Below are positions 11,599 through 46,385 of a stretch of DNA of 62,027 nt, one piece after another. The translations under genes were made by a program, and so were the position numbers. Origin of the DNA: an uncultured Eubacteriales bacterium (lineage in GTDB: Bacteria > Bacillota > Clostridia > Oscillospirales > CAG-272); contig URHR01000003.1 of assembly GCA_900547725.1 (NCBI GenBank), positions 1 to 62,027 on the forward strand, given 5' to 3'. Numbering within the stretch: position 1 is the stretch's first letter; every line of letters begins with the position of its first letter. The notes below the pieces were generated by a model. The model did no database searches. It was not told the DNA's origin and saw only the letters and a program-made list of their open reading frames with translations.

Positions 11599-11612
11599 AA
11601 AAAGGAGAAACC

Positions 11613-16053: not shown

Positions 16054-16163
16054 ACAGGTAAAGCAAGCATGTATGACCGTAAAAAGTGCCCCGGCAACCG
16101 CAACCGGGTGTCTCTTGCGGACGGTCTGACGTCTTGCGAAAAAACATTCAAGGGTGGAGGGAC

Positions 16164-17849: not shown

Positions 17850-17862
17850 GGAGGGGAGACTT

Positions 17863-18003
17863 ATGAAAAAGCAATATTCGGCACCTGAGATGATCTGTCA
17901 CAACATGGAATGGACGGATATTCTGACCACTTCCCTCAATTCCCAAACATCCGGGGAGGGGAAATCCTACAACTTTAACGAATGGGGGATAACATCGTTA
18001 TGA
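17863..18003 (+). CDS. 46-aa micro-ORF (small acidic hypothetical protein), family member 1
   Basis: It is not in the ORF track (<60 aa). GGAGG lies 8 nt upstream of ATG 17863. The product is MKKQYSAPEMICHNMEWTDILTTSLNSQTSGEGKSYNFNEWGITSL. Its TGA (18001..18003) overlaps ATG 18000 of the next gene. A same-length, same-motif partner lies at 43453..43593. Confidence 0.55.
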   Translation: MKKQYSAPEMICHNMEWTDILTTSLNSQTSGEGKSYNFNEWGITSL

Positions 18004-19499: not shown

Positions 19500-19501
19500 A
19501 G

Positions 19502-21684: not shown

Positions 21685-22575
21685 ATGTCTGTTCTTTTGG
21701 TTGCGGTGCTGATTCTCGTATACACAGCCCATTCACTGTTTGCAAGTCTGTTTTCCAAGCATTATCCGGGGGAGCACGGGGAGGCATCCCGCGTTTATTC
21801 TGTTTACTATGGGCTGATTGTGTCGCTCGCAACGCTGGCGGCATCCGGATTTGTTCCCAAAATCTCCTGGCTGACGCTTCTTTTGGGGATTGCCAACGGT
21901 GTTGCGGTCATGCTCTATAATCTGTCGCTTATCGGTGCCGCAGAGCGAGGACCGTATTCGGTTGTCATGGTATTCTCGCTGTTCGGTGGAATCCTTGTTC
22001 CGCTGGCGGTTTCGGTCGTTGCCTACCGGGAGCACCTGACTCCGGTGCAGTGGGCGGCAATTCTCATCATGTTGGTGGCATTCGTTTTTCTGAACATCGG
22101 AAAAAAAGGAGAGAAGCTGAAGGACAGCGTGAAAAAGGGCTTTTTTGCGCTCTGTCTGCTCCAGTTCTGCGCAAACGGGGCATACGGAACCCTGCTCAGC
22201 GTTCAGGAGCGGCTGACGGAGGGAACGGAAAACAACGGCATGACCGTTGTGACCTATGCGGTCGTTTTTCTGCTGTCGGTTCTCCTGCTTGCCGGCCGGA
22301 GGCGGGAACGGACGATGGCAGATCTCCGGCTGAACCGGAAATCTGTCGCTTGCCTCATCTTCTGCACCGGTTCGGTGACGGCGGGAATCATGATTCTGAT
22401 GCACTGCCTGTCACTGATGAACGTTGCGGTGCTGTATACTGTCGAAAACGGTGGTGTCCTGCTCCTCTCGGTCATTCTGTCGGCTTTCCTGTTCCGGGAA
22501 AAAATGACGGTGTCGAAGGGGATCGGAATTGTGCTGTCGGTCGTAAGTATGGTTTTGCTCGGCTTGCAGGGATGA
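21685..22575 (+). CDS. Polytopic membrane protein, EamA/DMT-like transporter (tentative)
   Basis: 296 aa, hydrophobic throughout with many predicted TM segments. GGAGG lies 8 nt upstream. Confidence 0.5.
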   Translation: MSVLLVAVLILVYTAHSLFASLFSKHYPGEHGEASRVYSVYYGLIVSLATLAASGFVPKISWLTLLLGIANGVAVMLYNLSLIGAAERGPYSVVMVFSLFGGILVPLAVSVVAYREHLTPVQWAAILIMLVAFVFLNIGKKGEKLKDSVKKGFFALCLLQFCANGAYGTLLSVQERLTEGTENNGMTVVTYAVVFLLSVLLLAGRRRERTMADLRLNRKSVACLIFCTGSVTAGIMILMHCLSLMNVAVLYTVENGGVLLLSVILSAFLFREKMTVSKGIGIVLSVVSMVLLGLQG

Positions 22576-23032: not shown

Positions 23033-23115
23033 TCCGTCCGCTGATCCCTGCCCCGGTTCACCGTGAGTGGGGAAGGTGACGTACCCGCTTGAAAGAATCC
23101 GGTTGGGGAGAAATG
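23033..23115 (+). repeat. Bipartite ~85-nt intergenic repeat, copy 2
   Basis: See copy 1 (8..92). This copy abuts the stop codon of the minus-strand rpiR-like gene. Confidence 0.7.
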
Positions 23116-23117
23116 CT

Positions 23118-23987
23118 CTAATATTTTTTACTCTGCAACGCTGCCTCGGTGTTATAAATTGCCTGCTTTGCGGCTTGATCGGCGTGGAGGACGATGTAGG
23201 TATAGATGCAGTCGATGATGGCGAGCTGCGCCAAGCGGGAGTTCATGGCGAGGATGGAATGCTCGGTCTCTCTGGAGCGGGTGAACAGGGCATAGTCCAC
23301 GGACTCCGCAAGCGGGCTTTTGCCGTGGTTGGTGATGCAGGCGGTGGTTGCGCCGTAGAGCTTGCACAGCCGCATGGCGTCCACAATATCCCGTGACGCG
23401 CCGGAGTGCGAAATGCCGATGGCAATTCCGCCGCGCCGCAGATGGGAGGCGATGATGGCTTGCAGATGGTTGTCACAGCATGCCTGCGCGTCAAGTCCCA
23501 GGCGCAGAAATTTGTGCGCCGCGTCCTGCGCAATGGAGGCGGAATTTCCAAGCCCGAAAACAACGATCCGGTTGGCGTGAAGCACCGCCTGTGCCACTGC
23601 CTCCAGCGTTTTCTCGTCCAGAACCGATTCGGTTTCCCTGAGAGATTCCGAAATGGACGCGATCCGCTTCTGATAGATGCGGTAGCAGTTGTCGCTTTTC
23701 CGAATCTCCTCGTCGATCCCCGATGCCGAGCCGATTTCTGCGGCAAGCCGCACCTTCAGCTCCTGATAGCCGTTCAGTCCGAGCCGCCTTGCAAACCGTA
23801 CCACGGTTGCGTTCCCGCAGGAGCAACGCCCGGCAAGCTCCGAGATCGAAATGCCGAGGATTTCCCCGGTGTGTGCCAGAAGGTAGTCCGCGAGCTTTTG
23901 CTCCGCGAACCCCATGCGGTCGTAATTTTGCCGGATGCTGTGCAGAACCGATTCCATCATACCTCCGAAAACGGAAATTATTTTCAT
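23118..23987 (-). CDS. MurR/RpiR-family transcriptional regulator (HTH plus SIS)
   Basis: 289 aa. The HTH is GISISELAGRCSCGNATVVRFARRLGLNGYQELK. The SIS block is IVVFGLGNSASIAQDAAHKFLRLG. It is divergent from the 24105 operon. The start could instead be the internal MMESV. Confidence 0.85.
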   Translation of the reverse strand: MKIISVFGGMMESVLHSIRQNYDRMGFAEQKLADYLLAHTGEILGISISELAGRCSCGNATVVRFARRLGLNGYQELKVRLAAEIGSASGIDEEIRKSDNCYRIYQKRIASISESLRETESVLDEKTLEAVAQAVLHANRIVVFGLGNSASIAQDAAHKFLRLGLDAQACCDNHLQAIIASHLRRGGIAIGISHSGASRDIVDAMRLCKLYGATTACITNHGKSPLAESVDYALFTRSRETEHSILAMNSRLAQLAIIDCIYTYIVLHADQAAKQAIYNTEAALQSKKY

Positions 23988-24046
23988 TTATTATACCATA
24001 TCCGAAAGAAAAAGTCAAGCATTCAGAAATTATTTTCTCATCCGTC

Positions 24047-24075
24047 TTGCAAAACCCACCGTGATATGCTAAAAT
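24047..24075 (+). promoter_or_regulatory. Sigma-A-type promoter of the 24.1-34.3 kb operon
   Basis: TTGCAA (24047..24052), a 17-nt spacer ending in TGC, and TAAAAT (24070..24075). It lies 30 nt upstream of ATG 24105, which has an AAAGGAGAA SD. Confidence 0.6.
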
Positions 24076-24104
24076 GAAGACAATACGGCAAAGGAGAAAA
24101 AACG

Positions 24105-25541
24105 ATGCAATATCAAATGAACGATTTTCTGTTCTCCATGATTCTGACCGAACTGGAGGACGCGGTGGGAAAGGAAAACTGCTCCACGCGCCCGATTGAC
24201 AAGGTGACGCACAGCGTGGATTACTACTGGCTCTCGCGGATGTGGGCAGACCGGGGACAGCGGATGCCGGAGGCGGATTTCGTGGTCTGCCCGCTGGATG
24301 CGACCGAGGTCTCCAAGGTTGTGAAAATTGCGAACTATTATAAAATTCCCGTGACGGTCTGGGGCGCGGGCGGCGGCACGCAGGGCGGCGCGATTCCGGT
24401 CTGCGGCGGCATTCTGCTGGATACCAAGCGGATGAACCGGATTTATCAGGTCAATACCGAGGGAATGTACATCGAATGCGGCACGGGTGCTATCTACAAG
24501 CACATTGAGTATGCCGCAAATGAGGTGGGCAAGGCGACCATGCACTACCCGTCCTCGCTGACCTGCTCCACGGTCGGGGGCTTCCTTGCGCACCGCGGCA
24601 TCGGCGTGGTGTCCACGAAATACGGCAAAATTGACGATATGGTTCTGCAGATGGAGGTTGTGCTTCCGAACGGGGACATCATTCTGACTTCCCCCGCGCC
24701 CAAGCACGCGGCAGGTCCCGACCTCAATCAGATTTTCATCGGCTCGGAGGGAACGCTCGGCATCATCACCAAGGCGCAGATCCGCATTTTCGACCAGCCG
24801 GAGGAACGGCGCTTCCGCGCATTCCTGTTTAAGGATATGCACGGCGCATTTGTCGCGTCGCGGGAACTGCTCCAGAAGTTCAAGCCCTCGGTCATGCGGC
24901 TGTATGACGAGGCGGAGACCGCTTCGCTGATCAAAAAGGTGGTCGGCGTGGAGCGCAAGGGCGCGTTCATGAACATTGCCTATGAGGGTTGCCGCGAGAT
25001 GGTGGAGGTGGAGGAGAAAATCCTTTTGGACACCTTCAAAAAGTACGGCGCGGAGGATCTCGGAAGCGAATACGGCGAGAAGTGGTGGAAGGAGAAGATT
25101 ACCTTCTTCTATCCCGGCTACATGATGGATCTGCCGCAGATGTTCGGCACAATGGATACCATTGCCCCGTATGACAAAATCGAGGAGATCTATTGGGCGA
25201 TGAAGGAGGCGATTGAGACCAACTTCCCGCAGGCGAAGTTCATTGCGCATTTCTCGCACTGGTACGAGTGGGGCGCGATGGTCTACGACCGCTTTATTGT
25301 GGACGGCAAGGATGTTCCGCAGGACCCGGTCGAAGCGCTCCGGCTGCATCAGGCAATCTGGACCTGCGGCGTGCGGACGGCTTTGGCGCACGGCGGCGTG
25401 GTCAACGATCACCACGGCGTGGGCATCAAGCTCGGCAGACTGATGAAGGAGCAGTACGGCCCTGCCATGCAGGTGTTCGAGGGACTGAAAAAACAGCTTG
25501 ACCCGAACGGGATCATGAACCCGTTCAAGCTGGGACTCTGA
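24105..25541 (+). CDS. FAD-linked oxidase/dehydrogenase (GlcD / D-lactate dehydrogenase-like)
   Basis: 478 aa. It has an FAD_binding_4-style N-terminal half (ATEVSKVVKIANYYKIPVTVWGAGGGTQGGAIP) and the C-terminal HHGVG motif of the vanillyl-alcohol-oxidase/GlcD superfamily. Confidence 0.8.
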   Translation: MQYQMNDFLFSMILTELEDAVGKENCSTRPIDKVTHSVDYYWLSRMWADRGQRMPEADFVVCPLDATEVSKVVKIANYYKIPVTVWGAGGGTQGGAIPVCGGILLDTKRMNRIYQVNTEGMYIECGTGAIYKHIEYAANEVGKATMHYPSSLTCSTVGGFLAHRGIGVVSTKYGKIDDMVLQMEVVLPNGDIILTSPAPKHAAGPDLNQIFIGSEGTLGIITKAQIRIFDQPEERRFRAFLFKDMHGAFVASRELLQKFKPSVMRLYDEAETASLIKKVVGVERKGAFMNIAYEGCREMVEVEEKILLDTFKKYGAEDLGSEYGEKWWKEKITFFYPGYMMDLPQMFGTMDTIAPYDKIEEIYWAMKEAIETNFPQAKFIAHFSHWYEWGAMVYDRFIVDGKDVPQDPVEALRLHQAIWTCGVRTALAHGGVVNDHHGVGIKLGRLMKEQYGPAMQVFEGLKKQLDPNGIMNPFKLGL

Positions 25542-25554
25542 GGAGGTGGATGAG

Positions 25555-26646
25555 ATGAAACTGTCGGAAAAGGTCAATCAACACGTGGATTCCTGCCGGT
25601 TCTGCTGGATGTGCCATCACATCTGCCCGATCGGCAATGCAACGGGACACGAAAGAAGCACCCCCCGCGCAAGGGCTTTGGAAATTTCCCTTGTCACGCG
25701 CGGCGCGCTCCGGCTTGATGATATTATGGACAACATTTACGAATGCGCCGGATGCGGTGCGTGCGTGCAGGTCTGCGTCACCGGATGGGACCCCGTGATG
25801 TTCACGAAAGCCGTCCGTGAGCAGGCGGCACTGGAGGGAAAGCTGCCGGATTATATCCGGAAATTGGTTGCAAACTGCCTCTCAAGCGGAAACGCGTACG
25901 GAATGACAGACCCGGCAGGGGAATTGCAGGCGGCAATCGGAAGGCATTCCGCCAAGACCGATACGCTCCTGTTCCTCGGCTCGGACGCAAGATACAAAAT
26001 GCCGGAGCAGGCGGTGAAAATGATTGCGGTTCTGGAGCGCGCGGGAGTAGACTTTACCGTGCTTGCGGAAGAGCCTGCGTCGGGCGCGCAGATGGATTAC
26101 CTTGTCGGGGCACTCAGGGAAACGAAAGCGCAGATGCAGGCGTGCGCGGCTGTGCTGAACGGCTACAAAACCGTGATTGCCGCCGACCCGACCGATGCAA
26201 AGGTTTTGCGCAGAACCTACGCGGAATACGGCGTGGAACTCTCCTGCCGCGTGGTGACCTTCCCGTCCTATGCGCTGAAACTGCTGCAATCCGGGAAACT
26301 GACCGTCCGAAAGCGGGAGATGCCTGTCGTTTATCAGGATCCGTTCCAGCTCTCGCGCGACCTCGGAGAAACCGAAGAACCCCGTGCGCTCATCTCCGCC
26401 TGCGCCGACCTTTCCGAAATGCTTCTGCACGGGGAGGAGACGGTCTGGGCAGGAAATCTGCTGATGGCGGAATGGATGCCGGAGGTCATGCGGGCAGTCG
26501 CGGCAAGAAGAATCTTCAACGCGGAGAGCGTTGGCGCAAAAACAATCGTCACGGCGTGCGTGGGCGAATATGCCGCACTGAAGGCGGCGGAAACAGACGG
26601 GATGAACATCCTGTCCATAGAAGACCTGATTCTCGGAGGAAACTGA
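25555..26646 (+). CDS. (Fe-S)-binding protein, GlcF/LutA/HdrD-like
   Basis: ORF 25546..26646. I prefer the ATG at 25555 (AGGAGG 8 nt upstream). The cysteine clusters are CRFCWMCHHICP and CAGCGACVQVC. Confidence 0.72.
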   Translation: MKLSEKVNQHVDSCRFCWMCHHICPIGNATGHERSTPRARALEISLVTRGALRLDDIMDNIYECAGCGACVQVCVTGWDPVMFTKAVREQAALEGKLPDYIRKLVANCLSSGNAYGMTDPAGELQAAIGRHSAKTDTLLFLGSDARYKMPEQAVKMIAVLERAGVDFTVLAEEPASGAQMDYLVGALRETKAQMQACAAVLNGYKTVIAADPTDAKVLRRTYAEYGVELSCRVVTFPSYALKLLQSGKLTVRKREMPVVYQDPFQLSRDLGETEEPRALISACADLSEMLLHGEETVWAGNLLMAEWMPEVMRAVAARRIFNAESVGAKTIVTACVGEYAALKAAETDGMNILSIEDLILGGN

Positions 26647-26647
26647 A

Positions 26648-27487
26648 ATGCTTGTCAATCTGCAAACAATCATCGGGATGGCGGAGGCGGGCGGCTTCTG
26701 CGTTCCGGCATTCAATGTGTACAACACCGAGACCCTGATGGGGGTGATTGCGGCGGCGGAGGAAGCGCACGCACCTGTGATTGTGCAGGTCTACCCGCGC
26801 CTGATCAAAGAGGAGGTCGGTTTTTACATCTGTCCCGCGGCGGTTGCGGCGGCAGGACGGGCAAGCGTGCCGGTCTGCCTGCACCTCGATCACGGACCGG
26901 ATTTGTTCTCGGTACAGCGTTCCCTGCGCTGGGGTATGACGGGCATCATGCTGGACGGCTCTACGCACCCGTTGGAGGAAAACATCGCATTGACGAAGCA
27001 GGTGGTGGACCTTTGCGCGGCGGTCGGCGTCGGCGTAGAGGGAGAAATCGGTCATGTCGGAAGCGTCAATGATGCCGCGATGGACGAATTTACGTCTCCC
27101 GATGAGGCGGCGGAATTCGTCAGACAGACCGGTGTGACCTGTCTGGCGGTCCTCATCGGCAACGCGCACGGGCACTACAAAAAGCCGCCGAAGTTGGATA
27201 TCGAGCGGGTCAGAGCCATCCGCAAAGCTACGGGCGGCATTCCGCTTGTTCTGCACGGCGGAAGCGGCATTCCGGACGATCAGGTTCGGGCGGCAATCGC
27301 GGCGGGCGTGCGCAAAATGAACATCGGCACGGATGTCTGCTGTGCCTTTGCGGACGGAACGCAGGAAACGCTGAACGATCCCGCGCGCAGTCTGGCGGTT
27401 GACCTCTTCATGAAGAAGCCGATTGAGTCCGTCAAACGCTTGGCACTCTCCAAAATTGCCCTGACGGGAGCTGAGGGGAAAGCATGA
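26648..27487 (+). CDS. Class II ketose-bisphosphate aldolase family (IolJ / KbaY / GatY-like)
   Basis: 279 aa. Motifs VPAFNVYNTETL, LHLDHG, GEIGHVG and LVLHGGSG are present. Confidence 0.85.
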   Translation: MLVNLQTIIGMAEAGGFCVPAFNVYNTETLMGVIAAAEEAHAPVIVQVYPRLIKEEVGFYICPAAVAAAGRASVPVCLHLDHGPDLFSVQRSLRWGMTGIMLDGSTHPLEENIALTKQVVDLCAAVGVGVEGEIGHVGSVNDAAMDEFTSPDEAAEFVRQTGVTCLAVLIGNAHGHYKKPPKLDIERVRAIRKATGGIPLVLHGGSGIPDDQVRAAIAAGVRKMNIGTDVCCAFADGTQETLNDPARSLAVDLFMKKPIESVKRLALSKIALTGAEGKA

Positions 27488-28398
27488 AGGCGCAGATTGT
27501 CGGGATCGGCGCGTGTGTTGCCGATACGCTGTGGTGTCTGCCGACCTACCCGACCGAGGACACCAAAATGAAAGCGGAAGAATCGCGGCAGGCAGGCGGC
27601 GGACCTGTTGCAACGGGCTTGGTCGCCGCCGCAAAGCTGGGCGCAGATACCGCATTCATCGGGAATCTTGCCGATGATGCAAGCGGGCGGTTTCTGTATT
27701 CGGATTTTGAAAAATACGGCGTGAGGACGGATCTGATTACCACGCTGTCGGGCTACCGCTCCTTTTCGTCCGCGCTCCTGCTTGCCGGGGACAGCGGCAC
27801 CCGCACCTGCGTGTTCGACCGCGGCAATTTGCCGCCGACCGTACTGAATGCGGCGCAAAAGACCGCCATCGCGGAAGCGGAAATCCTGATGGTGGACGGA
27901 AACGACCTGGATGCGGCGGTGGAGGGCGCGGGCATTGCCCATGCCGCAGGGAAACGGGTGCTGTACGATTGCGGCGGGAACTACCCGAACATCGCGCGCC
28001 TGCTGGCGGTCTCGGACATCCTGATTCCGAGCGAGGAATTTGCGCTTGCCGAAACGGGTTGCAAAACCGCCGCCGATGCGGCGAAAGCGCTGTTTGACAC
28101 CTATCATCCTGCCGTGGTGGTCATCACGCAGGGCAGGCGGGGCGGCATCCTGTTTGACGGGACGAAACCAACCGCCTACCCGATTTATCCCGCACGGGTG
28201 GTGGATTCCAACGGGGCGGGGGACGTGTTCCACGGCGCGTTTGCGGCGGCGCTTCTGCGCGGGTATGACTTCCTGACCTGCTGTCATTTTGCGTCCGCAA
28301 CCTCGGCGCTCAAATGCACGGGCATCGGTGCGCGGGAGAGCGTGCCGGATTTTGAAACGGTCAGAACCTATCTGAAGGAGAACGGCTATGAACTTTAA
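27484..28398 (+). CDS. PfkB-family sugar(-acid) kinase (IolC-like by context)
   Basis: 304 aa. GGGPVATG and the anion-hole motif DSNGAGDVFHGAF are present. Its ATGA overlaps the aldolase stop. Confidence 0.8.
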   Translation: MKAQIVGIGACVADTLWCLPTYPTEDTKMKAEESRQAGGGPVATGLVAAAKLGADTAFIGNLADDASGRFLYSDFEKYGVRTDLITTLSGYRSFSSALLLAGDSGTRTCVFDRGNLPPTVLNAAQKTAIAEAEILMVDGNDLDAAVEGAGIAHAAGKRVLYDCGGNYPNIARLLAVSDILIPSEEFALAETGCKTAADAAKALFDTYHPAVVVITQGRRGGILFDGTKPTAYPIYPARVVDSNGAGDVFHGAFAAALLRGYDFLTCCHFASATSALKCTGIGARESVPDFETVRTYLKENGYEL

Positions 28399-29176
28399 GA
28401 AAACCTATCACCCCGCAAAGGGGTATACCGAGATCTGCAAAATTGGGGAATGCAGTCTGCACCGCCTGTCGTTCGGGATCATCGAGCTGGACGCGGGGGA
28501 CAAACTGCCGTTTGAAACGGGGGACAAAGAGACGGCGTTCGTTATGCTGTCGGGACACTGCAATGTCCGCTCCGGTGAAGCCGAATGGCGAAACATCGGC
28601 AACCGCCAAACGGTATTCGAGAACCGCCGCGCCGAGTGCGTCTACCTGCCGCGCGACTACTGCTGTGAGATTGAAGCCATCGACCGTGTCAAAATCGCGG
28701 TCTGCGCAACGCCGGTTGACCGCAAGACCGAGCCGCAGGTTCTGCGCGAGGACCATGCGGTTCTGAAACGGTTGGGACGCGTTCCGTTTGAGCGGGAGAC
28801 GAGTTTTCTGGTGGACGGCAACAGCAACGCGCTGAAACTGACAATCGGCGAGGCATACTGCACCGAGGGCAACTGGGCGGGCTTCCCGCCGCACAAGCAT
28901 GACACCGACGATATGCCGCGCGAGTGCATTGCCGAGGAAATCTACTATTTCCTGTTCGAGCCGGAGCAGGGCTTTGCGGTGCAGTGCGTCTACACGGCAG
29001 ACGGTAAGGTGGACGAAGCCTACCGCGTGAAGAATGACGAACTGGTGGAGTTCCCGTACGGCTACCACACCACCGTTGCGACGCCGGGTTACCAAACCTA
29101 CTTTCTGTGGCTCATGTCCGGTGACCATCAGGGCTTCAACCGTTCGAACGACCCTGCGCACGACTGGGTGAGGTAA
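28388..29176 (+). CDS. iolB: 5-deoxy-glucuronate isomerase family (IolB/KduI cupin)
   Basis: 262 aa. GNWAGFPPHKHD, EEIYYF, QGFAVQCVYT and NDPAHDWV align with the B. subtilis IolB blocks (GNWSSYPPHKHD, EETYYH, QGFVFQRVYT, NDPAHEW) as I recall them. Confidence 0.75.
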   Translation: MNFKKTYHPAKGYTEICKIGECSLHRLSFGIIELDAGDKLPFETGDKETAFVMLSGHCNVRSGEAEWRNIGNRQTVFENRRAECVYLPRDYCCEIEAIDRVKIAVCATPVDRKTEPQVLREDHAVLKRLGRVPFERETSFLVDGNSNALKLTIGEAYCTEGNWAGFPPHKHDTDDMPRECIAEEIYYFLFEPEQGFAVQCVYTADGKVDEAYRVKNDELVEFPYGYHTTVATPGYQTYFLWLMSGDHQGFNRSNDPAHDWVR

Positions 29177-29269
29177 GACCTTGAGGCTCTGCCTCAAACT
29201 CCGTTCAAGGAACTTTTTGAAAAAAGTTCCTTGAAAATCTTCAAAAACTTTCACTGAGGGGGGCTCCCC
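29174..29269 (-). repeat. Leader-element family, inverted and decayed copy (L2')
   Basis: TAAGACCTTGAGGCTCTGCCTCAA...CAAGGAACTTTTTGAAAAAAGTTCCTTG...ACTTTCACTGAGGGGGGCTCCCC. Its last 23 nt (29247..29269) are the perfect reverse complement of 29306..29328. Confidence 0.65.
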
Positions 29270-29305
29270 ATACAAAAGAAAGCACTGAACATGGGTTCTG
29301 CATAC

Positions 29306-29401
29306 GGGGAGCCCCCCTCAGTGAAAGTTCTTGGGGGTTCTCAGGGGACTTCTTCCAAGAAGTCCCCTGAGCAGGGTTTGGGACAGCGTCCCAAGGTCTT
29401 A
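29306..29401 (+). repeat. SD-abutting double-hairpin leader element, copy L2
   Basis: GGGGAGCCCCCCTCAGTGAAAGTTCTTGGGGGTT-CTCAGGGGACTTCTTCCAAGAAGTCCCCTGAG-CAGGGTTT-GGGACAGCGTCCC-AAGGTCTTA is followed directly by AGGAGGAGAT-ATG (29412). Confidence 0.75.
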
Positions 29402-29411
29402 AGGAGGAGAT

Positions 29412-30065
29412 ATGAGTTATCAGGAATTAAGAAAGAAAAATCCGGGACTGCCGCTGATCGATGTGTCCTCGGCAGAGTTTTCGGACTACGGGAGACTGCT
29501 GGCGCTGGACTGCACGGAGATTCTGGCGGCGGCGCGGGAGATTCCCATGCCGGAGGGCGGCTCGGTCTATCTGCCGGGGGTGGAGGCGTTTGAGCGACTG
29601 CCGATTGCGAAAACGGTTCGGGATACGGTGTTCGGAACGCTGGATACGCAGTTGGGCTACTGCTACGGCTTCAACGACCGGCTGAATGCAACCGAATGGC
29701 ACGCGTCAAGCGAGGTCAACATCGCAGTGACCGATCTTGTGCTGATTCTCGGCAGACGGCAGGAGATTGACGCACGGGGAATGCTTCATTCCGCACGCAT
29801 GAAAGCATTTTTCCTGCCTGCCGGGAGCGCTGTGGAAATCTATGCAACCACGCTCCACTTCTGCCCCTGTCAGGCACAGGCCGGTGGCTTTGGCTGTGTG
29901 GTGGGTCTGCCGAAGGGGACGAATCTGCCGCTTGACGAAAAGCCGGACGATCCGCTTCTGTTCCGCCGCAACAAGTGGCTTCTGGCGCATGAAACGAATA
30001 CCGATCTGATTGCACGCGGCGCGGTCGCGGGCATTACGGGAGAAAACCTATGCGTTATACATTAG
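29412..30065 (+). CDS. Uncharacterised 217-aa protein (possibly DUF4867-like; unverified)
   Basis: It has a strong SD (AGGAGG) and coding-like composition, and it overlaps the next gene by 16 nt. I recognise no catalytic motif. Confidence 0.5.
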   Translation: MSYQELRKKNPGLPLIDVSSAEFSDYGRLLALDCTEILAAAREIPMPEGGSVYLPGVEAFERLPIAKTVRDTVFGTLDTQLGYCYGFNDRLNATEWHASSEVNIAVTDLVLILGRRQEIDARGMLHSARMKAFFLPAGSAVEIYATTLHFCPCQAQAGGFGCVVGLPKGTNLPLDEKPDDPLLFRRNKWLLAHETNTDLIARGAVAGITGENLCVIH

Positions 30066-31525
30066 GCATCGACTTCGGCGGCGGAGCGGCGAAAGCGACC
30101 CTGCTTTGCGCGGACGGGCAAATCGCCGCCACCCATACCGTGGAGTATCCGACCGCACATCCGACCGCCCGCGCGTGCGAGCAGAATCCCGCCGACTGGT
30201 GGCGGGCGCTCTGCACCTGCACGCGGGAGGTTCTTCGGAAAGGGAACATCCGGGCCGGGGAGATTGCCGCAGTCGCATTGGATTCCGCCACGCATTCGGC
30301 GGTGGTCTGCGACGGGAATATGACCCCCCTGCGCCCCTGCATCCATTGGACGGACAGCCGGAGCGCGGAGCAGGCGGCAGGACTGCGGCAGACGCACGGC
30401 GCGGAGATTTTTGCAAAAACCTACCACAGCCCCGACACCGTCTGGACGCTTCCGCAGTTGTTGTGGCTGAGGGAAACCGAGCCGCAGATTTACGAAAAAA
30501 TTCGGTATGTTCTGTTTGAAAAGGACTGGCTTCGCTACCGCCTGACCGGAGTCCTCTGCACCGACCGCATCGAGGCGGCGGGGAGTATGCTTTACAACTG
30601 CGAACGCGGAGAATGGGATTCCGACCTGTGCGCGCTTGCCGGGCTGACGGCGGGACAGCTCCCGCCGCTCTGCGCGCCAACCGATTCCGCCGGAACCGTC
30701 ACCGCGACAGCCGCCGCAAAAACGGGGCTGGCAGAGGGGACGCCCGTCATCTGCGGAACAACCGATACCTGTATGGAAATTCTGGCATCGGGAGCGGTCC
30801 GCGAGGGGAACATGACCGTCAAGCTCGCCACGGCAGGGCGCATCTGCGTGATCACCGACCACGCCTGCCCCGACCGTCAGCTGGTCTGCTATCCCCACGC
30901 CGTGCGCGGGCTGTGGTATCCCGGAACAGCAACAAAAGCCGCCGCGTCCGCTCTGCGCTGGTATCGCGACACCTTCGGGGGCAGCTACCGGGAGATTGAC
31001 GCCGCCGCCGAAACGGTTTCCGTCGGCTGTGAGGGGCTGATGTTCCACCCGTATCTCAACGGCGAACTGACCCCGTATGCCGACCCCGCCCTGTGCGGCA
31101 GTTTCGTCGGCGTGCGCTCCACCCATACGAAAGCCCACTTTGCCCGCGCGGTACTGGAGGGCGTTGCGCTCTCGCTTCTCGATTGCTACCGCTATCTGGA
31201 AACGCTCGGCATTCCGCACGGGAATACCGCCACGCTCATCGGCGGCGGCGCGGGCAGTCCGCTGTGGGGGCAGATTGTTTCGGATTGTCTGGGATTGACC
31301 CTGACCGTCACCGAAAACAGCGATTCCTCCCTTGGCTCTGCCATGCTTGCGGGTGTCGCGGTCGGGCTGTTCGGCGGCTATGACCAAGCCGTGGCGCACT
31401 GCGTCCGCACGGTTCGGACGCTGACCCCGAATGAAGAGAACACGAAGCGCTACGCGGAACTGTACAAAACCTACCGCCGCGTGCATGACGCACTGGCGCC
31501 GATCTACAGCGGAGGGGAGACATGA
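30050..31525 (+). CDS. FGGY-family carbohydrate kinase (xylulokinase-like)
   Basis: 491 aa. It has the MRYTLGIDFGGGAAKATLL phosphate-1 motif, HPYLNGELTPY, and GGGAGSPLWGQIVSD. Confidence 0.85.
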   Translation: MRYTLGIDFGGGAAKATLLCADGQIAATHTVEYPTAHPTARACEQNPADWWRALCTCTREVLRKGNIRAGEIAAVALDSATHSAVVCDGNMTPLRPCIHWTDSRSAEQAAGLRQTHGAEIFAKTYHSPDTVWTLPQLLWLRETEPQIYEKIRYVLFEKDWLRYRLTGVLCTDRIEAAGSMLYNCERGEWDSDLCALAGLTAGQLPPLCAPTDSAGTVTATAAAKTGLAEGTPVICGTTDTCMEILASGAVREGNMTVKLATAGRICVITDHACPDRQLVCYPHAVRGLWYPGTATKAAASALRWYRDTFGGSYREIDAAAETVSVGCEGLMFHPYLNGELTPYADPALCGSFVGVRSTHTKAHFARAVLEGVALSLLDCYRYLETLGIPHGNTATLIGGGAGSPLWGQIVSDCLGLTLTVTENSDSSLGSAMLAGVAVGLFGGYDQAVAHCVRTVRTLTPNEENTKRYAELYKTYRRVHDALAPIYSGGET

Positions 31526-32901
31526 GGATTGCGGTCTGCGTGCGGCAGGGACTTGACGGCGAGTTGAACCCGTTTGACGCATCGGCATATGAGATTGCCC
31601 TGTCGGAAGCGGGTGCGGAGGTGATTCTCGTCAGCATGGGCGTTCCCAAAACTGCCGATCTGCTCCTGCACCTGACCCGTCTCGGCGCGTCCCGTGCGAT
31701 CCTGCTGTCCGATCCGATCTTTTCCGGTTCGGATACGCTGGCAACCGCCTATGTGCTGTCCCGCGCGATGGAAAAGCTGAAGCCCGACCGCATTCTCTGC
31801 GGCAGAAAGACGCTGATCGGAGACACGGGGCAGGTGCCGCCGATGCTCGCGGAGATGGCGGGCTATGAATTCCTGCCCGATGTGCTGACCGTTGCCGACG
31901 GGAATGCCGTGACACGCGAGGGAAACCGCAGACTTCCGCCCCGCGCCCTGCTTGCGGCGGAAAAGCAGGCGGTTCTGCGATTGCCGTCCCTGCTGTCCCG
32001 CGTGGGAACGGTGGAAACATGGAACGCCGCCGACATCGGGGCTGACCCCGTGCGGTGCGGGCTGAACGGCTCGCCCACACGGGTGCTTGAAACCCGGGAG
32101 AACACCGCAGGCAGACGGAAATGCCGCATTCTTCAGCCGCGCGACCTGCCGGAAATCCTTGCCGAAGCCCTGCGGGAGAGACGGGAACAGAGCGCACCGC
32201 AGGGGAACGGGGAAAAGCTTCCGTGCGTTCTGTCGGTCGGCTCGGAAGCCATGTCCTTTGCGCGGACGGTCTGCGACAATCCGCAGGAAATTCCGTTATG
32301 CTCTGCCTCGGAACTGGCAGAAGTCATTGCGCAAAAAAAGCCGGATGCGGTGCTGTTCGGGAATGATCCCGCATCACGGGAGACTGCCGCGAGGCTGGCG
32401 GCGAGGGAAAAGCTCGGACTGTGCGCCGACTGTACCGCCGTGACCGCAGAGAACGGGAGGGCTGTTCTGTACCGCCCCGCGTTGTCGGGCAGTCTGATTG
32501 CAAAGATTGTGTCGGAGACGACACCGGCACTGGCAACCGTCCGATGCCGCACCGAGCGGAGCGCGTCCCTGATCGTTGCGGCTGGCTACGGCGTGCGGAA
32601 ACAATTGGACACGGTACGAGCCATGGCGACCCGCCTCGGCGCGGACTTTGCCGTCTCGCGCAAACTGGTGGACGGCGGCTTTGCCCCGTACCGCGAGCAG
32701 GTGGGGCTGACCGGAAAGACCGTTTCCCCTGCGGTTTATCTTGCCGTCGGCATTTCGGGCGCGGTGCATCACCTTGCGGGAATGGATCGCTCCGGCACGG
32801 TCATCGCCGTCAATCCCGACCCGCACGCGCCGATTTTTGATTATGCGGATTACGGTATCCGCTGCTCATTTGAAGAATTGGAGGATTTGTATCATGCTTG
32901 A
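31522..32901 (+). CDS. Single-chain electron-transfer flavoprotein (EtfB-like N-terminal half fused to EtfA-like C-terminal half)
   Basis: 459 aa. The N-terminus MRIAVCVRQGLDGELNPFDASAYEIAL...SGSDTLATAYVL is EtfB-like. The C-terminus VYLAVGISGAVHHLAGMDRSGTVIAVNPDPHAPIFDYADYGI matches the EtfA FAD-binding signature. Its ATGA overlaps the FGGY stop. Confidence 0.75.
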   Translation: MRIAVCVRQGLDGELNPFDASAYEIALSEAGAEVILVSMGVPKTADLLLHLTRLGASRAILLSDPIFSGSDTLATAYVLSRAMEKLKPDRILCGRKTLIGDTGQVPPMLAEMAGYEFLPDVLTVADGNAVTREGNRRLPPRALLAAEKQAVLRLPSLLSRVGTVETWNAADIGADPVRCGLNGSPTRVLETRENTAGRRKCRILQPRDLPEILAEALRERREQSAPQGNGEKLPCVLSVGSEAMSFARTVCDNPQEIPLCSASELAEVIAQKKPDAVLFGNDPASRETAARLAAREKLGLCADCTAVTAENGRAVLYRPALSGSLIAKIVSETTPALATVRCRTERSASLIVAAGYGVRKQLDTVRAMATRLGADFAVSRKLVDGGFAPYREQVGLTGKTVSPAVYLAVGISGAVHHLAGMDRSGTVIAVNPDPHAPIFDYADYGIRCSFEELEDLYHA

Positions 32902-34297
32902 CTATCGGGTAAAAATCGGTCTTGTCGCCATGCGGCGCAACACCACAGACCGCCCGCGCGGAACTTTTCTGACCTGGTATTCCGCCGAACAGCGGGAGAA
33001 AAAGAATCTTGATTATATCGAAAGCCACTTTGCAGGTGATCACGTCAGCTTTACCGATCAACGCGGACTGGGACACAACGATCTGATTTTTGACGCGGCG
33101 AGTGCGCAGGCGGTCGTTGAGCGGTTTCGCAGGGAAAATGTGGACGCGGTGATGATCATCAACTGCAATTTCGGAAACGAGGAAGCGGCGGCGGACATCG
33201 CGCAGGCGCTCGGCAAGCCGGTTCTTCTGTGGGCGCCGCTGGATGACGAATACTATGCGGACGGAATGCGTCCGACCGACTCGCAGTGCGGGCTGTTCGG
33301 CGTGTCGCGGCAGCTGCAACGGTTCCGCATCCCGTTCTCGCATCTGCCGTGCTGTCGGGTGGAATCTCCGGAATTCCGGGAGGGCTTTGAGCGCTTCGTG
33401 CGCGTTGTCTGCATGGTCAAAAATTTCCGCGGGATGCGCATCGGTCAGCTTGGAACGCGTCCCGCGCCCTTCTTCTCGGTCATCTGGAACGAGGGCGAGC
33501 TGATGGAGCAGTTCGGGGTGAAGATTGTTCCTATCAACTTTGCCACGCTTGAGCAGAGAATGAAGGAAGCGCCGGAGAAGTATGCGGAGGAAATTGCGGA
33601 ATACGAGCGGTATTTCACCCACAACTTCCGTCTCGATGACCTGACCCCGCCGCAAATCAAACCCATGGCAACGCTTGCGGCAACCTACCGCCACCTGTTT
33701 GAGGAGTTCGACCTCGACGTTCTTTCCGCCGAATGCTGGACGGCAACGCCCGTGATGTTTGCGGGGCTGGCACCCTGCGCGGTCTACGGACTGCTGAACG
33801 ATCTCGGATATTTGGTTTCCTGCGAGAGCGACCTGCACTGTGCCATGACCATGGCACTCCTGAAGTGCGCAACGATGGGGGAGGGCAAGCCGCTGTTCGG
33901 GGAATTCACTGTGCGGCATCCCGAAAACAAAAACGCAGAGCTGCTCTGGCACTGCGGACCGTTCCCGCTCTCGCAGAAAGCCCCGGACAGCGAGGCAAGA
34001 CTGGTCAACCAGCGCGAATGGTTCCGCGGAAAGGACGGCGACTATACCGTGGCGCGCATTGACCGCGAGACCGGCGGGCAGTATGTCATCCTCCCGCTCC
34101 ATTGCCATACCACCGATGGCCCTTTGACGCACGGCACTTACATCTGGGGCGAATTTGAGGACCTGCAGGCAGTGGAGGACAAGCTCCTTGACGGTCCTTA
34201 CATCCACCATTTCGTCGAAATGCAGGGCGACTACCGCAAGGAAATCCAAGAGTTCTGCAAGTATTTCCCGAACCTGAAAGTCGATCGGGTGGAATGA
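32894..34297 (+). CDS. FucI/AraA-superfamily sugar isomerase-like protein
   Basis: ORF 32741..34297. I moved the start to ATG 32894 (MLDYRVKIGLVAMRR; GGAGGA upstream; 8-nt overlap with the ETF gene). At 467 aa it has the size and N-terminal pattern of short L-fucose-isomerase-family proteins. The family call is tentative. Confidence 0.55.
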   Translation: MLDYRVKIGLVAMRRNTTDRPRGTFLTWYSAEQREKKNLDYIESHFAGDHVSFTDQRGLGHNDLIFDAASAQAVVERFRRENVDAVMIINCNFGNEEAAADIAQALGKPVLLWAPLDDEYYADGMRPTDSQCGLFGVSRQLQRFRIPFSHLPCCRVESPEFREGFERFVRVVCMVKNFRGMRIGQLGTRPAPFFSVIWNEGELMEQFGVKIVPINFATLEQRMKEAPEKYAEEIAEYERYFTHNFRLDDLTPPQIKPMATLAATYRHLFEEFDLDVLSAECWTATPVMFAGLAPCAVYGLLNDLGYLVSCESDLHCAMTMALLKCATMGEGKPLFGEFTVRHPENKNAELLWHCGPFPLSQKAPDSEARLVNQREWFRGKDGDYTVARIDRETGGQYVILPLHCHTTDGPLTHGTYIWGEFEDLQAVEDKLLDGPYIHHFVEMQGDYRKEIQEFCKYFPNLKVDRVE

Positions 34298-34500
34298 AGC
34301 GGTTTTTGCGATAAACGAATCGGGAGGCAATGAGATTGTGAGGAATCCAAAAGCCTGTCACTGCCGCCGATTTCCGGGGCAGAGAAGGCGGACATCCCCT
34401 TGCCGGATACTTGGAAAGACCGTATGACCTGAAAAATTGAATCCCATACAGGCGAATGAGAAGTTTTTTCGCGTCCGACGACGCGGCGGATGAAACGCTC

Positions 34501-35364
34501 TCATTCGCCTTCTTTCAATCTGCTCTGCAAATTTCTGATTTTCCACTTAAGCGGAGTGGTTCCCGTATATTTCCGAAAGAGCTTATAAAGGTGGGATGTG
34601 TCATAAAGTCCCAATTGTTCGGATATGTCCTCCAGCGTGATTTCCGAGGTGTTCAACAGCTCCTTGGCTTTTTCTACCCGACTCCGGTTGATGTATTCCA
34701 TCGGCGAGTAGCCCAGCTGACTCCGAAAGCGTCTGCGCAGGGAGGATTCGCTGGTGGCAAAATGCTTTGCAATATCGGCAATGGACGGGTTTTTATCCAG
34801 ACCGGAGTCGATGTAGTCCAGAATCGGTTGAAGCGTATGTTCCGAGGCGGACTGATTCTGCAGATTCAGGATCAGGTGATGGATCAGGTTCAGCAACCGG
34901 CTTTTGGCGGAGAGCATCTTTTGCGTTTTATAGTCCGTCACCGCCGCTTCGAATTTCTGCCGGTAATATTCGTTGGTATCCACGGTCAGAATTTCCGGCT
35001 CTGTGCCGACCGTAATGCGACTGCCGGACGGATCGCAGAGCGAAAAATTCAGCAGCAGGGTCGCGGGCTGGGTGTCGGTATCGTCCAACAGAAATTCCAC
35101 CATGTACCGACACCCCTGCGGAACGGAAATGACCGAATTCCGCCTGCCGTGCAGAATCCTGCCGTCGGTCAGGGTGTAGCGTGCCTCGCGGCATAAAATA
35201 ATCGTCAGCCCGTTATCCGGGCGCGGCGCATCCAGATAGACGAATTTTGAATGATTTTTCCATGGCTGTCGCAATCCGACAACCGAAAAGATTTGTGCAT
35301 CTATACTGTTTAGATTGAGTAATTTTACCAGTTCCATATGAAAGCCTCTCAAAATTATTTTCAT
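34501..35364 (-). CDS. AraC-family transcriptional regulator
   Basis: 287 aa. The C-terminal HTH is IADIAKHFATSESSLRRRFRSQLGYSPMEYINRSRVEKAKELL...LGLYDTSHLYKLFRKYTGTTP. Confidence 0.85.
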   Translation of the reverse strand: MKIILRGFHMELVKLLNLNSIDAQIFSVVGLRQPWKNHSKFVYLDAPRPDNGLTIILCREARYTLTDGRILHGRRNSVISVPQGCRYMVEFLLDDTDTQPATLLLNFSLCDPSGSRITVGTEPEILTVDTNEYYRQKFEAAVTDYKTQKMLSAKSRLLNLIHHLILNLQNQSASEHTLQPILDYIDSGLDKNPSIADIAKHFATSESSLRRRFRSQLGYSPMEYINRSRVEKAKELLNTSEITLEDISEQLGLYDTSHLYKLFRKYTGTTPLKWKIRNLQSRLKEGE

Positions 35365-41915: not shown

Positions 41916-41968
41916 AGGCATCACCGCGCAATTCCGACGGTGCAATCGCGAATTGCGCGGTAATGCCT
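41916..41968. repeat. Minimal copy of the MITE ends forming a 19-bp hairpin in the 5' leader of 41987
   Basis: AGGCATCACCGCGCAATTC, a 15-nt loop, and GAATTGCGCGGTAATGCCT (18/19 complementary). It is followed by AAAAAAAGGAGAAAACAC-ATG. Confidence 0.75.
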
Positions 41969-41986
41969 AAAAAAAGGAGAAAACAC

Positions 41987-43354: not shown

Positions 43355-43392
43355 AGCGATTACCGCTTCCGGTTCTGATGCCCCACAAGGCA

Positions 43393-43430
43393 GATACCGC
43401 CGCCCGATTCTGTATCCGGGCGGCGGTATC
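43393..43430 (+). other. GC-rich 14-bp perfect stem-loop between GLUG paralog 3 and the micro-ORF
   Basis: GATACCGCCGCCCG, a 10-nt loop, and CGGGCGGCGGTATC. No T-run follows. Confidence 0.8.
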
Positions 43431-43452
43431 GGAATAAAGAAAGGAGATTTGC

Positions 43453-43593
43453 ATGATGAAAAGCAGTTTTTACACCTCGCCGGAGATGCTTCTGATAGGG
43501 ACGGATGCCGACGATGTCATCCGCACCTCCGGGATACAGGCAGTCGAAAATGACGGGATTTCTGCAGTGCCGGGCATCCCGTGGAAATCCTGA
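43453..43593 (+). CDS. 46-aa micro-ORF (small acidic hypothetical protein), family member 2
   Basis: It is not in the ORF track. AGGAG lies 6 nt upstream. The product is MMKSSFYTSPEMLLIGTDADDVIRTSGIQAVENDGISAVPGIPWKS. Its stop is 23 nt before ATG 43617. It has the same length, position and motif as 17863..18003. Confidence 0.55.
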   Translation: MMKSSFYTSPEMLLIGTDADDVIRTSGIQAVENDGISAVPGIPWKS

Positions 43594-43616
43594 TCGGAAG
43601 GAGGGGCGGAAAAGAC

Positions 43617-46277: not shown

Positions 46278-46385
46278 TTCTGCGGAACACCGCAGGGAAA
46301 TCCGGTCGTTCTGCGGGAATTTCCCGAACCGGACATCGGGGAAAAACGGAACAAACGGAGTCATAAAAGAAAGGAAGATTGATTG

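Follow-up and report, generated by a model that had tools for sequence, protein, structure and literature searches.

The window, that is the whole 62,027-nucleotide stretch of DNA analysed here (contig URHR01000003.1 from an uncultured Eubacteriales bacterium), carries at 24105-34297 nine close-packed, co-oriented genes on the + strand and, upstream of them, a divergent gene for a regulator of the RpiR type. The nine genes form a sugar catabolic operon built round a little-studied branch of flavoenzymes. It is a widespread carbohydrate catabolic operon of strictly anaerobic gut bacteria, of which no characterisation was found in the literature. A first-pass annotation of the DNA had described a close-packed catabolic operon with tight, overlapping junctions, in which an IolB-type isomerase, a PfkB kinase and a class II aldolase are joined to a redox module of a flavoprotein, an iron-sulfur (Fe-S) protein and an electron-transferring flavoprotein (ETF). 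Significant hidden Markov model (HMM) matches were obtained for all ten genes (the nine and the RpiR gene) at the coordinates given there, and these matches together with the computed junctions bore out the gene order, the packing and the combination of modules. The general claim of that annotation, that an ETF-linked flavo-iron-sulfur enzyme belongs to an anaerobic sugar route not yet described, stood, no characterised pathway being matched in HMM libraries, the Protein Data Bank (PDB) or the literature.

The flavoprotein and its redox partners

The first gene of the operon (24105-25541, +) encodes an FAD oxidoreductase (FADox) of 478 aa with the Pfam domains FAD_binding_4 and FAD-oxidase_C, previously taken for a GlcD-like dehydrogenase. 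Its best PDB match was alkyl-dihydroxyacetone phosphate (alkyl-DHAP) synthase (ADPS) with 143 bits, compared to 120 bits for D-lactate dehydrogenase (D-LDH) and 106 bits for LctD, only the seventh-best match. R265, Y394 and H436-H437 of FADox align with R419, Y578 and H616-H617 of ADPS and are invariant in 61-62 homologues, the position of ADPS His615 being occupied by Asp. The motifs concerned are RLYD (at ADPS Arg419), GAMVY (at ADPS Tyr578) and NDHHGVG (SHHHGVG in ADPS). In a residue-by-residue alignment with D-LDH the 2-hydroxyacid-dehydrogenase motifs GHxGDGNxH and GEHGIG were not found in FADox, where AHFSHWYEWGAMVY and NDHHGVG stand in place of the GHVGDGNFH and TGEHGIG of D-LDH. The active-site motifs rule out a 2-hydroxyacid dehydrogenase of the GlcD/LctD type and, as judged from these alignments, FADox carries the catalytic signature of the ADPS/YgcU type, not that of D-lactate or glycolate dehydrogenases. 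It is a member of a little-studied branch of the VAO/ADPS superfamily that includes E. coli YgcU, its closest named relative among those tested. Since FADox is of the ADPS and not of the GlcD/LctD type, the earlier suggestion that the operon processes lactate or lactaldehyde is unlikely.

ADPS binds the DHAP head group. Comparison with ADPS/AGPS (PDB 4BBY, 2UUU) also revealed clear differences. ADPS, which exchanges acyl for alkyl on DHAP, is a redox-neutral ether-lipid enzyme of 584-658 aa with an extra, lipid-binding N-terminal region of 100-200 aa (the alignment with FADox begins at ADPS residue 115-204) and has no Fe-S or ETF partner, whereas the context of FADox is sugar catabolism. The 90% protein cluster represented by FADox has 2944 members, among them 264-aa proteins named 5-deoxy-glucuronate isomerase, one of which is 77% identical to the IolB of the window and unrelated to FADox. 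This mixture indicates that the database cluster is chimeric, either as an artefact or because it was bridged by a fused or misassembled sequence.

The flavoprotein is conserved to a degree not shared by the other products of the operon. The median identity to the proteins of the window across species was 92% for the flavoprotein (52 species), 77% for the isomerase, 75% for IolB, 74% for the aldolase, 66% for the PfkB kinase, 63% for the Fe-S protein, 62% for the FGGY kinase, 54% for the DUF4867 protein and 52% for the ETF. In a Bacilli metagenome-assembled genome (MAG) and in Thermoguttaceae the flavoprotein is still 83-85% identical, whereas its partners in the Bacilli MAG are far more divergent (ETF 35%, Fe-S protein 39% and isomerase 41% identical). 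Across phyla it thus retains 83-92% identity as opposed to 35-77% for its operon neighbours, and this lead of 30-50 percentage points over its own partners begs an explanation. Identity at third codon positions of the flavoprotein gene was 33-59%, near that of the neighbouring genes; synonymous sites are saturated. The combination of low third-position identity with high amino-acid identity reflects purifying selection at the protein level and not to recent transfer. Both recent horizontal transfer and an overlapping antisense coding sequence were rejected on these data as the source of the conservation. The clade is also isolated, with the nearest 50%-identity representatives being 54%, 46% and 40% identical.

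The gene for the Fe-S protein (25546-26646, +; Pfam 4Fe-4S dicluster) always adjoins the flavoprotein gene in the related loci annotated. The protein has eight N-terminal cysteines for two [4Fe-4S] motifs, invariant in 62 sequences, followed by a cysteine-poor C-terminal domain resembling GlcF, GlpC and LdhH (CCG match with E=0.028). The C-terminal cysteines are not conserved, therefore no CCG cluster is expected; of the GlcF/LutA-like assignment made previously the two [4Fe-4S] motifs stood, and a genuine CCG-cluster protein was rejected.

The ETF (31522-32901, +) is a compact fused EtfB-EtfA of 459 aa, recognised by Pfam and PDB matches and by a structure model. A typical two-subunit ETF is about 130 aa longer. 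The fusion had been predicted, and the AlphaFold model (pLDDT 84.6, pTM 0.80) indeed matches both chains, EtfB structures with a TM score of 0.65-0.69 and EtfA structures with 0.5-0.6; no ferredoxin domain was found in the model. The best PDB matches were subunits of bifurcating complexes (LctC, CarE and the Bcd-associated Etf), with LctC being the best for the EtfA part, and in sequence matches bifurcating ETFs reached 115 bits versus approximately 90 bits for human ETF. Like LctBCD of Acetobacterium woodii (PDB 7QH2), which also comes from an anaerobic Firmicute, the operon joins a FAD_binding_4 dehydrogenase to an ETF, but it differs from LctBCD in the fused, compact ETF and the separate 2x[4Fe-4S] protein. 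A scan for hydrophobic stretches in five proteins (the Fe-S protein, FADox, the ETF, the isomerase and the DUF4867 protein) indicated that all of them look soluble.

Relatives of the flavoprotein were found in clusters of other composition. The 54%-identical sister belongs to the cluster LacI-FGGY-FADox-partner-MFS sugar transporter-IolB-PfkB-isomerase-aldolase, which has no ETF; a Fibrobacter-type domain is encoded on the same contig, which is likely Fibrobacter-like. In the cluster of the 40%-identical sister the order FADox-partner-FGGY is accompanied by two GFO/IDH/MocA dehydrogenases, a SIS protein, an Ino1-like protein, PfkB, an ABC sugar transporter and LacI, and the partner of the flavoprotein has lost most of its cysteines. 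The ygc genes of E. coli K-12 (ygcNOP / ygcQRSUW / yqcE-ygcE) are a more distant counterpart. YgcU is 30% identical to FADox (174 bits, above any solved structure) and shares the RLYD motif, the catalytic Tyr and the HHHGIG motif, and the ygc genes also encode an FGGY kinase (YgcE), an ETF (YgcQR) and two sugar-type MFS transporters. They differ from the operon in that YgcE and YgcU are not adjacent, the ETF has two subunits and is joined by ETF-quinone oxidoreductase-like YgcN/YgcO, by YgcP of the glycerol-3-phosphate antiterminator family and by a short-chain dehydrogenase/reductase, and there is no adjacent Fe-S partner, IolB, PfkB kinase, aldolase or isomerase. An FGGY kinase thus recurs with this type of flavoprotein in three otherwise different clusters, adjoining the flavoprotein or its partner in both sister clusters, and an ETF accompanies it in Firmicutes and in E. 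coli. No functional study of ygcU or ygcE, of this gene combination or of ADPS-like enzymes associated with FGGY kinases or ETFs was found in the literature.

Distribution and gene content among relatives

One genome per species was searched with a profile of the fused ETF, which returned at least 599 candidates, of which at least 591 were confirmed. The cluster is present in at least 591 species-level genomes, mostly Oscillospirales MAGs of human and ruminant guts. All of the best 80 of the at least 599 ETF matches stemmed from MAGs of uncultured Clostridia (human, Hadza and ruminant guts) that bear the labels Acutalibacteraceae, Oscillospiraceae, Faecousia or Ruminococcaceae. A contig of 'Clostridia bacterium HGM12690' matches the window at 98%, and individual 90%-identity clusters of the flavoprotein contain hundreds to thousands of metagenome sequences.

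Gene content was counted in those 52 related loci in which 9 kb or more of sequence precede the ETF gene. All eight enzyme genes form one string in 31 loci, and in 13 more only the isomerase gene is missing, an arrangement far beyond chance. The FGGY and ETF genes are present in all 52 loci, the FADox and Fe-S genes in 50, the PfkB gene in 49 and the aldolase and IolB genes in 48 each; the isomerase gene was found in 34 loci (absent in 18) and the DUF4867 gene in 24. The invariant core in Clostridia comprises the FGGY kinase, the ADPS/YgcU-like flavoprotein with its 2x[4Fe-4S] partner, the fused ETF, IolB, PfkB and the aldolase; the SqvD-like isomerase is an optional addition, as is a ring-opener (DUF4867 and/or aldose 1-epimerase).

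The most frequent insertion was an aldose 1-epimerase gene (Aldose_epim), present in 22 loci and often replacing or accompanying the DUF4867 gene. A pair of NagB-like and NagA genes lies between the FGGY and ETF genes in 17-19 loci (NagA scored 233 versus 225.65 on TIGR00221), an AEC-family transporter gene is inserted in 9 loci and a gene for a PMI-like protein in 6. The FGGY gene adjoins the ETF gene in most loci, with accessory genes lying between them in the others. Some relatives embed an AEC or MFS transporter in the operon; in this window the operon has none, as the first-pass annotation had stated. The divergent RpiR gene of this locus was confirmed, but control by RpiR, also proposed there, is a lineage-specific trait. 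When scored within 10 kb upstream of the ETF gene, and not by adjacency, an RpiR gene was found in 16 of the 52 loci and an AraC-family gene instead in 12.

The Bacilli version has every part in a different gene order. In Thermoguttaceae (Planctomycetota) the order is isomerase-FADox-FeS-aldolase-PfkB followed by IolB-DUF4867, and neither FGGY nor ETF genes were found within about 10 kb of these loci. The ETF is thus a component of the Clostridia and Bacilli versions and was not seen in the Thermoguttaceae or Fibrobacter-like ones.

The Pfam families of 119 proteins flanking the related operons were heterogeneous and included no recurrent glycosidase or transporter, hence a conserved neighbour of either kind was rejected as a clue to the substrate. 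ARMT1-like damage-control phosphatases flank the operon in 4 loci and MGH1-like (GH63-type) glycoside hydrolases in 5, in each case in different species.

Candidate routes

The operon contains a single redox enzyme system. The reading preferred here, put forward tentatively as one possible route, consists of a kinase, a flavoprotein dehydrogenase, an aldolase and an optional branch for aldose entry. The pairing of FGGY kinase and flavoprotein across clusters suggests that the kinase makes the substrate of the flavoprotein. The FGGY kinase (30050-31525, +) would phosphorylate a terminal CH2OH of the substrate, and the flavoprotein would oxidise the resulting phosphate ester beside the phosphorylated end to yield a DHAP-like head group, R-CO-CH2-OP, a logic that parallels GlpK/GlpD and EryA/EryB. 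Electrons would exit via the two [4Fe-4S] clusters to the fused ETF in Firmicutes and to some other acceptor in the Thermoguttaceae and Fibrobacter-like versions. The class II, metal-dependent ketose-phosphate aldolase (26648-27487, +) would then release DHAP, the IolB-family cupin aldose-ketose isomerase (28388-29176, +) would turn the leftover acyclic hydroxy-aldehyde into a ketol, and the YihV/ketohexokinase-like PfkB-family sugar kinase (27484-28398, +) would phosphorylate the ketol to give a second triose phosphate. With the SqvD-like isomerase and a ring-opener present, a free aldose could enter as a ketose via the same PfkB kinase and aldolase. The scheme gives each core enzyme one step.

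If a single oxidation is to end in triose phosphates, the substrate must be more reduced than a hexose, for example of the hexitol or deoxy-sugar type. When stepwise pathways were drawn on paper, only hexitol-type and 6-deoxyhexose-type schemes balanced; those for pentoses, hexoses, uronates, aldonates, 1,5-anhydroglucitol and L-sugars were rejected since an invariant gene was left unused or an implausible C3 product arose.

The preferred route finds support in the conservation and core composition of the operon, the recurrent pairing of FGGY kinase and flavoprotein, the invariant ADPS-type residues of the flavoprotein, the distribution of the ETF and the single redox system, and also in two of the other enzymes. 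The PfkB kinase (Pfam PfkB) is nearest to YihV, the sulfofructose kinase (133 bits, 34% identity), followed by ribokinase (85 bits) and ketohexokinase (66 bits); YihV and ketohexokinase act on unphosphorylated ketoses at C1. The aldolase (PF01116, 288 bits) has Ala in place of the Arg that clamps the 6-phosphate in fructose-bisphosphate (FBP) aldolases, as does the ketose-1-phosphate aldolase SqiA (PMC10665668). Its PDB matches were 7ncc (191 bits), YdjI (186 bits), SqiA (184 bits) and AgaY (180 bits).

YihV and SqiA are enzymes of sulfoglycolysis, and two further proteins of the operon have sulfoglycolysis enzymes as their best characterised matches or among them. The DUF4867 cupin of the SqvB/SftX family (217 aa; 29412-30065, +; PF16161, 229 bits), listed as unknown in the first-pass annotation, matched Bacillus megaterium SqvB (9GYY) with 174 bits, and the apparent Glu/His/Glu/His metal ligands are identical in the alignment (PMC11968277). 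The structure of SqvB/SftX, a cupin of sulfoquinovose clusters, has been solved and no function demonstrated (PMC11968277); the DUF4867 protein is a putative ring-opening enzyme or mutarotase. The SqvD/SftI-like aldose-ketose isomerase (467 aa; 32894-34297, +) had the SftI model NF048012 as its sole family match (E=2.6e-26, 92 bits versus a cutoff of 700). Its start was placed at ATG 32894, in agreement with gene calls on identical metagenome contigs, and not at TTG 32741, the start given in the program-made list of open reading frames. The FucI/AraA-family assignment made earlier stood as a distant superfamily likeness, since weak matches were obtained with Pfam Fucose_iso_C (E=0.074) and with AraA in the PDB (E=0.048) and the enzyme is, by sequence, only distantly FucI/AraA-like; as shown above, it is optional. 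The upper part of the sulfo-Embden-Meyerhof-Parnas pathways (sulfo-EMP and sulfo-EMP2) likewise combines DUF4867 or a mutarotase with a FucI-superfamily isomerase, a C1 kinase and a class II aldolase (PMC9594981).

These similarities could reflect degradation of sulfoquinovose with internal desulfonation. The DUF4867 protein, the isomerase, the kinase and the aldolase would yield DHAP and sulfolactaldehyde, IolB and the FGGY kinase would convert the latter into 3-sulfoacetol phosphate, and the ADPS-like enzyme would swap sulfite for water. The host families Acutalibacteraceae and Oscillospiraceae are the main carriers of yihQ in the rumen (PMC13219744). To check whether sulfonate-binding residues are kept, the K27/N109/R138 triad that binds the sulfonate in YihV (PMC8006165) was inspected. 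In the window kinase the three positions are K, V and N, so that only K is retained; among 63 homologues K was found in 56 (7 gapped), V in 57 and N in 62. The position of the sulfonate-binding Gln51 of SqiA is Pro in the aldolase, for which SqiA is only the third-best match after 7ncc and YdjI. Neither the operon nor the 25 commonest Pfam families of the 119 flanking proteins included a GH31/YihQ sulfoquinovosidase, a sulfolactaldehyde reductase or dehydrogenase, or a sulfonate/sulfite exporter. The operon adds IolB and a redox module to the sulfo-EMP set, and a redox-neutral substitution leaves the Fe-S protein and the ETF unexplained. A sulfoquinovose substrate was rejected on the failed residue tests in kinase and aldolase, and this reading is regarded as very improbable.

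Several observations weigh against the preferred route. Carbanion or flavin-N5 chemistry beside a ketone, and not plain dehydrogenation of a carbinol, is suggested by the conserved ADPS residues. The occurrence of ring-opener genes beside IolB and FGGY fits a free cyclic aldose over a C3 aldehyde or polyol, no FGGY kinase was seen within about 10 kb in the Thermoguttaceae loci, and most versions of the operon have no reductase or dedicated transporter. The FGGY kinase is xylulokinase-like: it scored 370.0 against a cutoff of 380.25 on the XylB model TIGR01312 and approximately 200 bits with xylulokinases in the PDB. Moreover, a triad of DUF4867, FucI-like isomerase and XylB-like FGGY kinase, likened here by gene description, is found in the xylose operon of Clostridium saccharobutylicum, xylB-ROK-fructose 6-phosphate aldolase-transketolase-DUF4867-'L-fucose isomerase', in which xylB is needed for growth on xylose (PMC6158908). 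That operon goes on with a transketolase and a transaldolase-type enzyme, in contrast to the flavoprotein, Fe-S protein, ETF, IolB, PfkB and class II aldolase found here. Arg92 of the PfkB kinase, conserved in the family, aligns with the TR-motif Arg of Pfk-2 and may bind an anionic group. Finally, the genes for NagA/NagB-like and PMI-like enzymes inserted in some loci suggest that the pathway passes through a ketohexose 6-phosphate and a bisphosphate.

In such a route, of the rare-ketohexose or tagatose type, an aldose (e.g. galactose) would be ring-opened and isomerised, the FGGY kinase would add the 6-phosphate and the PfkB kinase the 1-phosphate, and the aldolase would give DHAP and glyceraldehyde 3-phosphate. 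In some species hexosamine or hexose 6-phosphates would enter via the NagA/NagB-like or PMI-like enzymes, while the flavoprotein/Fe-S/ETF module and IolB would serve a side or entry reaction. Two kinases together with an aldolase of the FBP/tagatose-bisphosphate type are what this scheme needs: the aldolase passed the ketose-bisphosphate aldolase subfamily model TIGR00167 (244 versus 215.6), GatY-type models are among its best matches, and a xylulokinase-like FGGY enzyme implies phosphorylation of the distal primary OH. The Aldose_epim, NagA/NagB-like and PMI-like insertions and the Arg92 alignment speak for it as well. Nevertheless, the aldolase was far below the GatY and KbaY equivalog cutoffs (GatY subfamily 238 versus 383, TIGR01858 218 versus 444, KbaY 184 versus 542), was also below those of the FBP aldolase models and lacks the 6-phosphate-clamping Arg. 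The PfkB kinase is not of the LacC/FruK/Pfk-2 type, as it failed the 1-PFK/phosphosugar-kinase family model TIGR03168 (37 versus 216) and gave no BLAST match with E. coli PfkB, and no GatZ/KbaZ is present. On these grounds a plain tagatose or galactitol pathway, named in the first-pass annotation as the case that might undo its claim, was tested and did not hold. A hexose can be converted to two triose phosphates with no redox step, and the most constant and most conserved parts of the operon, FADox/Fe-S in 50 and IolB in 48 of the 52 loci, are left unexplained. A bisphosphate route is thus considered rather unlikely.

The explanation offered originally was an IolB-IolC-IolJ-like cleavage of a deoxy-sugar acid to DHAP and an acid-aldehyde, coupled to a confurcating oxidation of a 2-hydroxy acid (lactate, glycolate or glycerate) by a GlcD/LctD-type enzyme and EtfAB. 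The B. subtilis system is similar to the operon in that an IolB-family isomerase, a PfkB kinase and a class II aldolase lead to DHAP and an aldehyde, and here IolB passed the equivalog model TIGR04378 (225.2 bits versus a cutoff of 205; PF04962, 231 bits). The aldolase resembles YdjI/IolJ-type enzymes that cleave carboxylate-ended ketose 1-phosphates, the AEC family embedded by some relatives is of the organic anion type, and the best PDB matches of the ETF come from bifurcating complexes. Of the iol-like trio only IolB stood; the kinase failed the IolC model TIGR04382 (98 bits versus a cutoff of 300) and is nearest YihV. The operon adds an FGGY kinase, the flavoprotein/Fe-S/ETF module and a second isomerase to the IolB-IolC-IolJ set; iolG, iolE, iolD and iolA are absent from the operon and none was seen in the related loci annotated, although no search was aimed at them. 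There is also no aldehyde dehydrogenase to form the hydroxy acid, the window has separate genes for hexuronates (UxaC/UxaA and a UxaB-like reductase), the flavoprotein has ADPS-type residues in place of the D-LDH motifs, and its pairing with FGGY kinases suggests a phosphorylated substrate. The Iol and LctBCD analogies each fail on a defining feature, and this reading appears improbable.

The ADPS-type residues bring in a different possibility, a full anaerobic route for a 6-deoxyhexose (of the rhamnose, fucose or quinovose type). The isomerase, PfkB acting as a 1-kinase and the aldolase would yield DHAP and lactaldehyde, IolB would convert lactaldehyde to acetol and the FGGY kinase would produce acetol phosphate. 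The flavoprotein would then use water to hydroxylate the methyl group, a second DHAP arising by way of a flavin-N5 adduct, and two electrons would leave through the Fe-S clusters and the ETF. Such a scheme is redox-balanced, with one step for each core enzyme. The FGGY product, X-CH2-CO-CH2-OP, is exactly the substrate skeleton of ADPS, whose catalytic residues are invariant in the homologues of FADox. The VAO superfamily includes p-cresol methylhydroxylase, which hydroxylates a methyl group with water and was among the PDB matches of FADox. Val and Asn at the YihV sulfonate positions of the kinase fit a neutral C6, a GH29 fucosidase gene adjoins the operon here and rhamnogalacturonan- or pectin-type genes lie near two relatives. 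On the other hand, the chemistry is without precedent, the isomerase is missing in 18 of the 52 loci, the ring-opener genes cluster with IolB and FGGY, and the window has its own canonical FucI. By our own estimate the water-driven C-H hydroxylation has an E0' near 0 V; NAD+ could then not be reduced, confurcation or no, and a fermenter would have to rely on some acceptor like crotonyl-CoA. The complete 6-deoxyhexose route is therefore unlikely. Similarly unlikely is its central step in the more general form, that is ADPS-type covalent flavin-N5 chemistry on a small ketol phosphate, X-CH2-CO-CH2-OP, which IolB and the FGGY kinase would form from the C3 aldehyde of the aldolase step, with acetol phosphate (X = H) going to DHAP and two electrons to the Fe-S protein and ETF. 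If true, gut anaerobes could convert 6-deoxyhexoses, for instance rhamnose or fucose, wholly into two triose phosphates rather than excreting propanediol, and sugar metabolism would gain a new type of oxygen-independent C-H hydroxylation, that from acetol phosphate to DHAP.

Operon layout, surroundings and significance

The junctions between the nine genes are, in order, +4, +1, -4, -11, a 235-nt spacer, -16, -4 and -8 nt. The isomerase gene, last in this lineage, is the first of the operon in most species. The divergent RpiR/MurR-family gene (23118-23987, -; HTH_6 and SIS) is separated from the FADox gene by a promoter region of 117 nt (23988-24104) with sigma-70-like sites on both strands. 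By consensus match only, these are TTGCAA-17-TAAAAT at 24047-24075 on the + strand and TTGACT-17-TATAAT at 24018-23990 on the - strand. Downstream of the last gene a terminator-like hairpin followed by a T-run (34485-34509, +) was found, also by consensus match only. An EamA gene lies upstream of the operon at 21685-22575.

The spacer between the IolB and DUF4867 genes had been described as palindromic, and it proved to contain a copy of a dispersed repeat (29174-29401) with 99-nt inverted arms and terminal inverted repeats of the AAGACCTTGGGAC type. Its RNA fold has an energy of -139.7 kcal/mol (z=-11.85), and related copies are present in the window at 60355-60437, 61955-62027 and 11566-11602. 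The sequence of five out of six metagenome contigs begins 3-45 nt ahead of the DUF4867 gene, at or just past the repeat, and in relatives an aldose 1-epimerase gene occupies its position. A separate 71-nt repeat with a GC-rich hairpin occurs in copies 85% identical to each other at 13-83 and 23039-23109, the latter directly downstream of the 3' end of the RpiR gene. Neither this repeat nor any other part of the window matched Rfam, and the tRNA scan of the window was empty as well.

A canonical three-domain FucI is encoded at 46383-48170 (+), with strong matches to Fucose_iso_N1, N2 and C. A row of hexuronate genes at 8663-13007 (+) encodes a UxaB-like reductase of the mannitol-dehydrogenase family, the altronate dehydratase UxaA and the glucuronate isomerase UxaC. 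Since canonical genes for both are present elsewhere in the window, plain fucose and hexuronates are poor candidates for the substrate of the operon, and their use by it was rejected. The hexuronate genes are preceded by GH4 and GH20 genes and an AraC regulator. The FucI gene has no adjacent fuculokinase or fuculose-phosphate aldolase gene, and upstream of it there are genes for a GH30 enzyme, a GH29 fucosidase, an AP_endonuc_2 protein, four unknown proteins and a GDSL esterase. The 45 nt at the 3' end of the operon's isomerase gene (34233-34277) are 80% identical to 46289-46333, just upstream of the FucI gene; both segments hold a GGAAAT...ATTTCC inverted repeat. The likeness may be due to chance or to a shared operator.

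Large proteins to which no Pfam family matched, in two sets of tandem paralogues, are encoded at 16086-21625 and 41963-45302. They share internal repeats (e.g. 42533-42832 and 44481-44780, 96% identical) and a recurring GGCGGAATTGTCGGA motif. A protein of 2380 aa with Listeria-Bacteroides repeats and a GLUG motif is encoded at 48729-55871 (+), where the GC content is 47-50% compared to 55-60% elsewhere; this compositionally distinct segment probably encodes a surface protein.

Gut bacteria commonly have the cluster, and its carriers in human, Hadza and ruminant guts are nearly all uncultured Oscillospirales, which makes the substrate of the operon a blind spot in models of carbohydrate use in the gut. 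Identification of the FADox reaction would annotate thousands of genes, would probably give the ygc cluster of E. coli a function, and could reveal new flavin chemistry or a new ETF-coupled step of fermentation.

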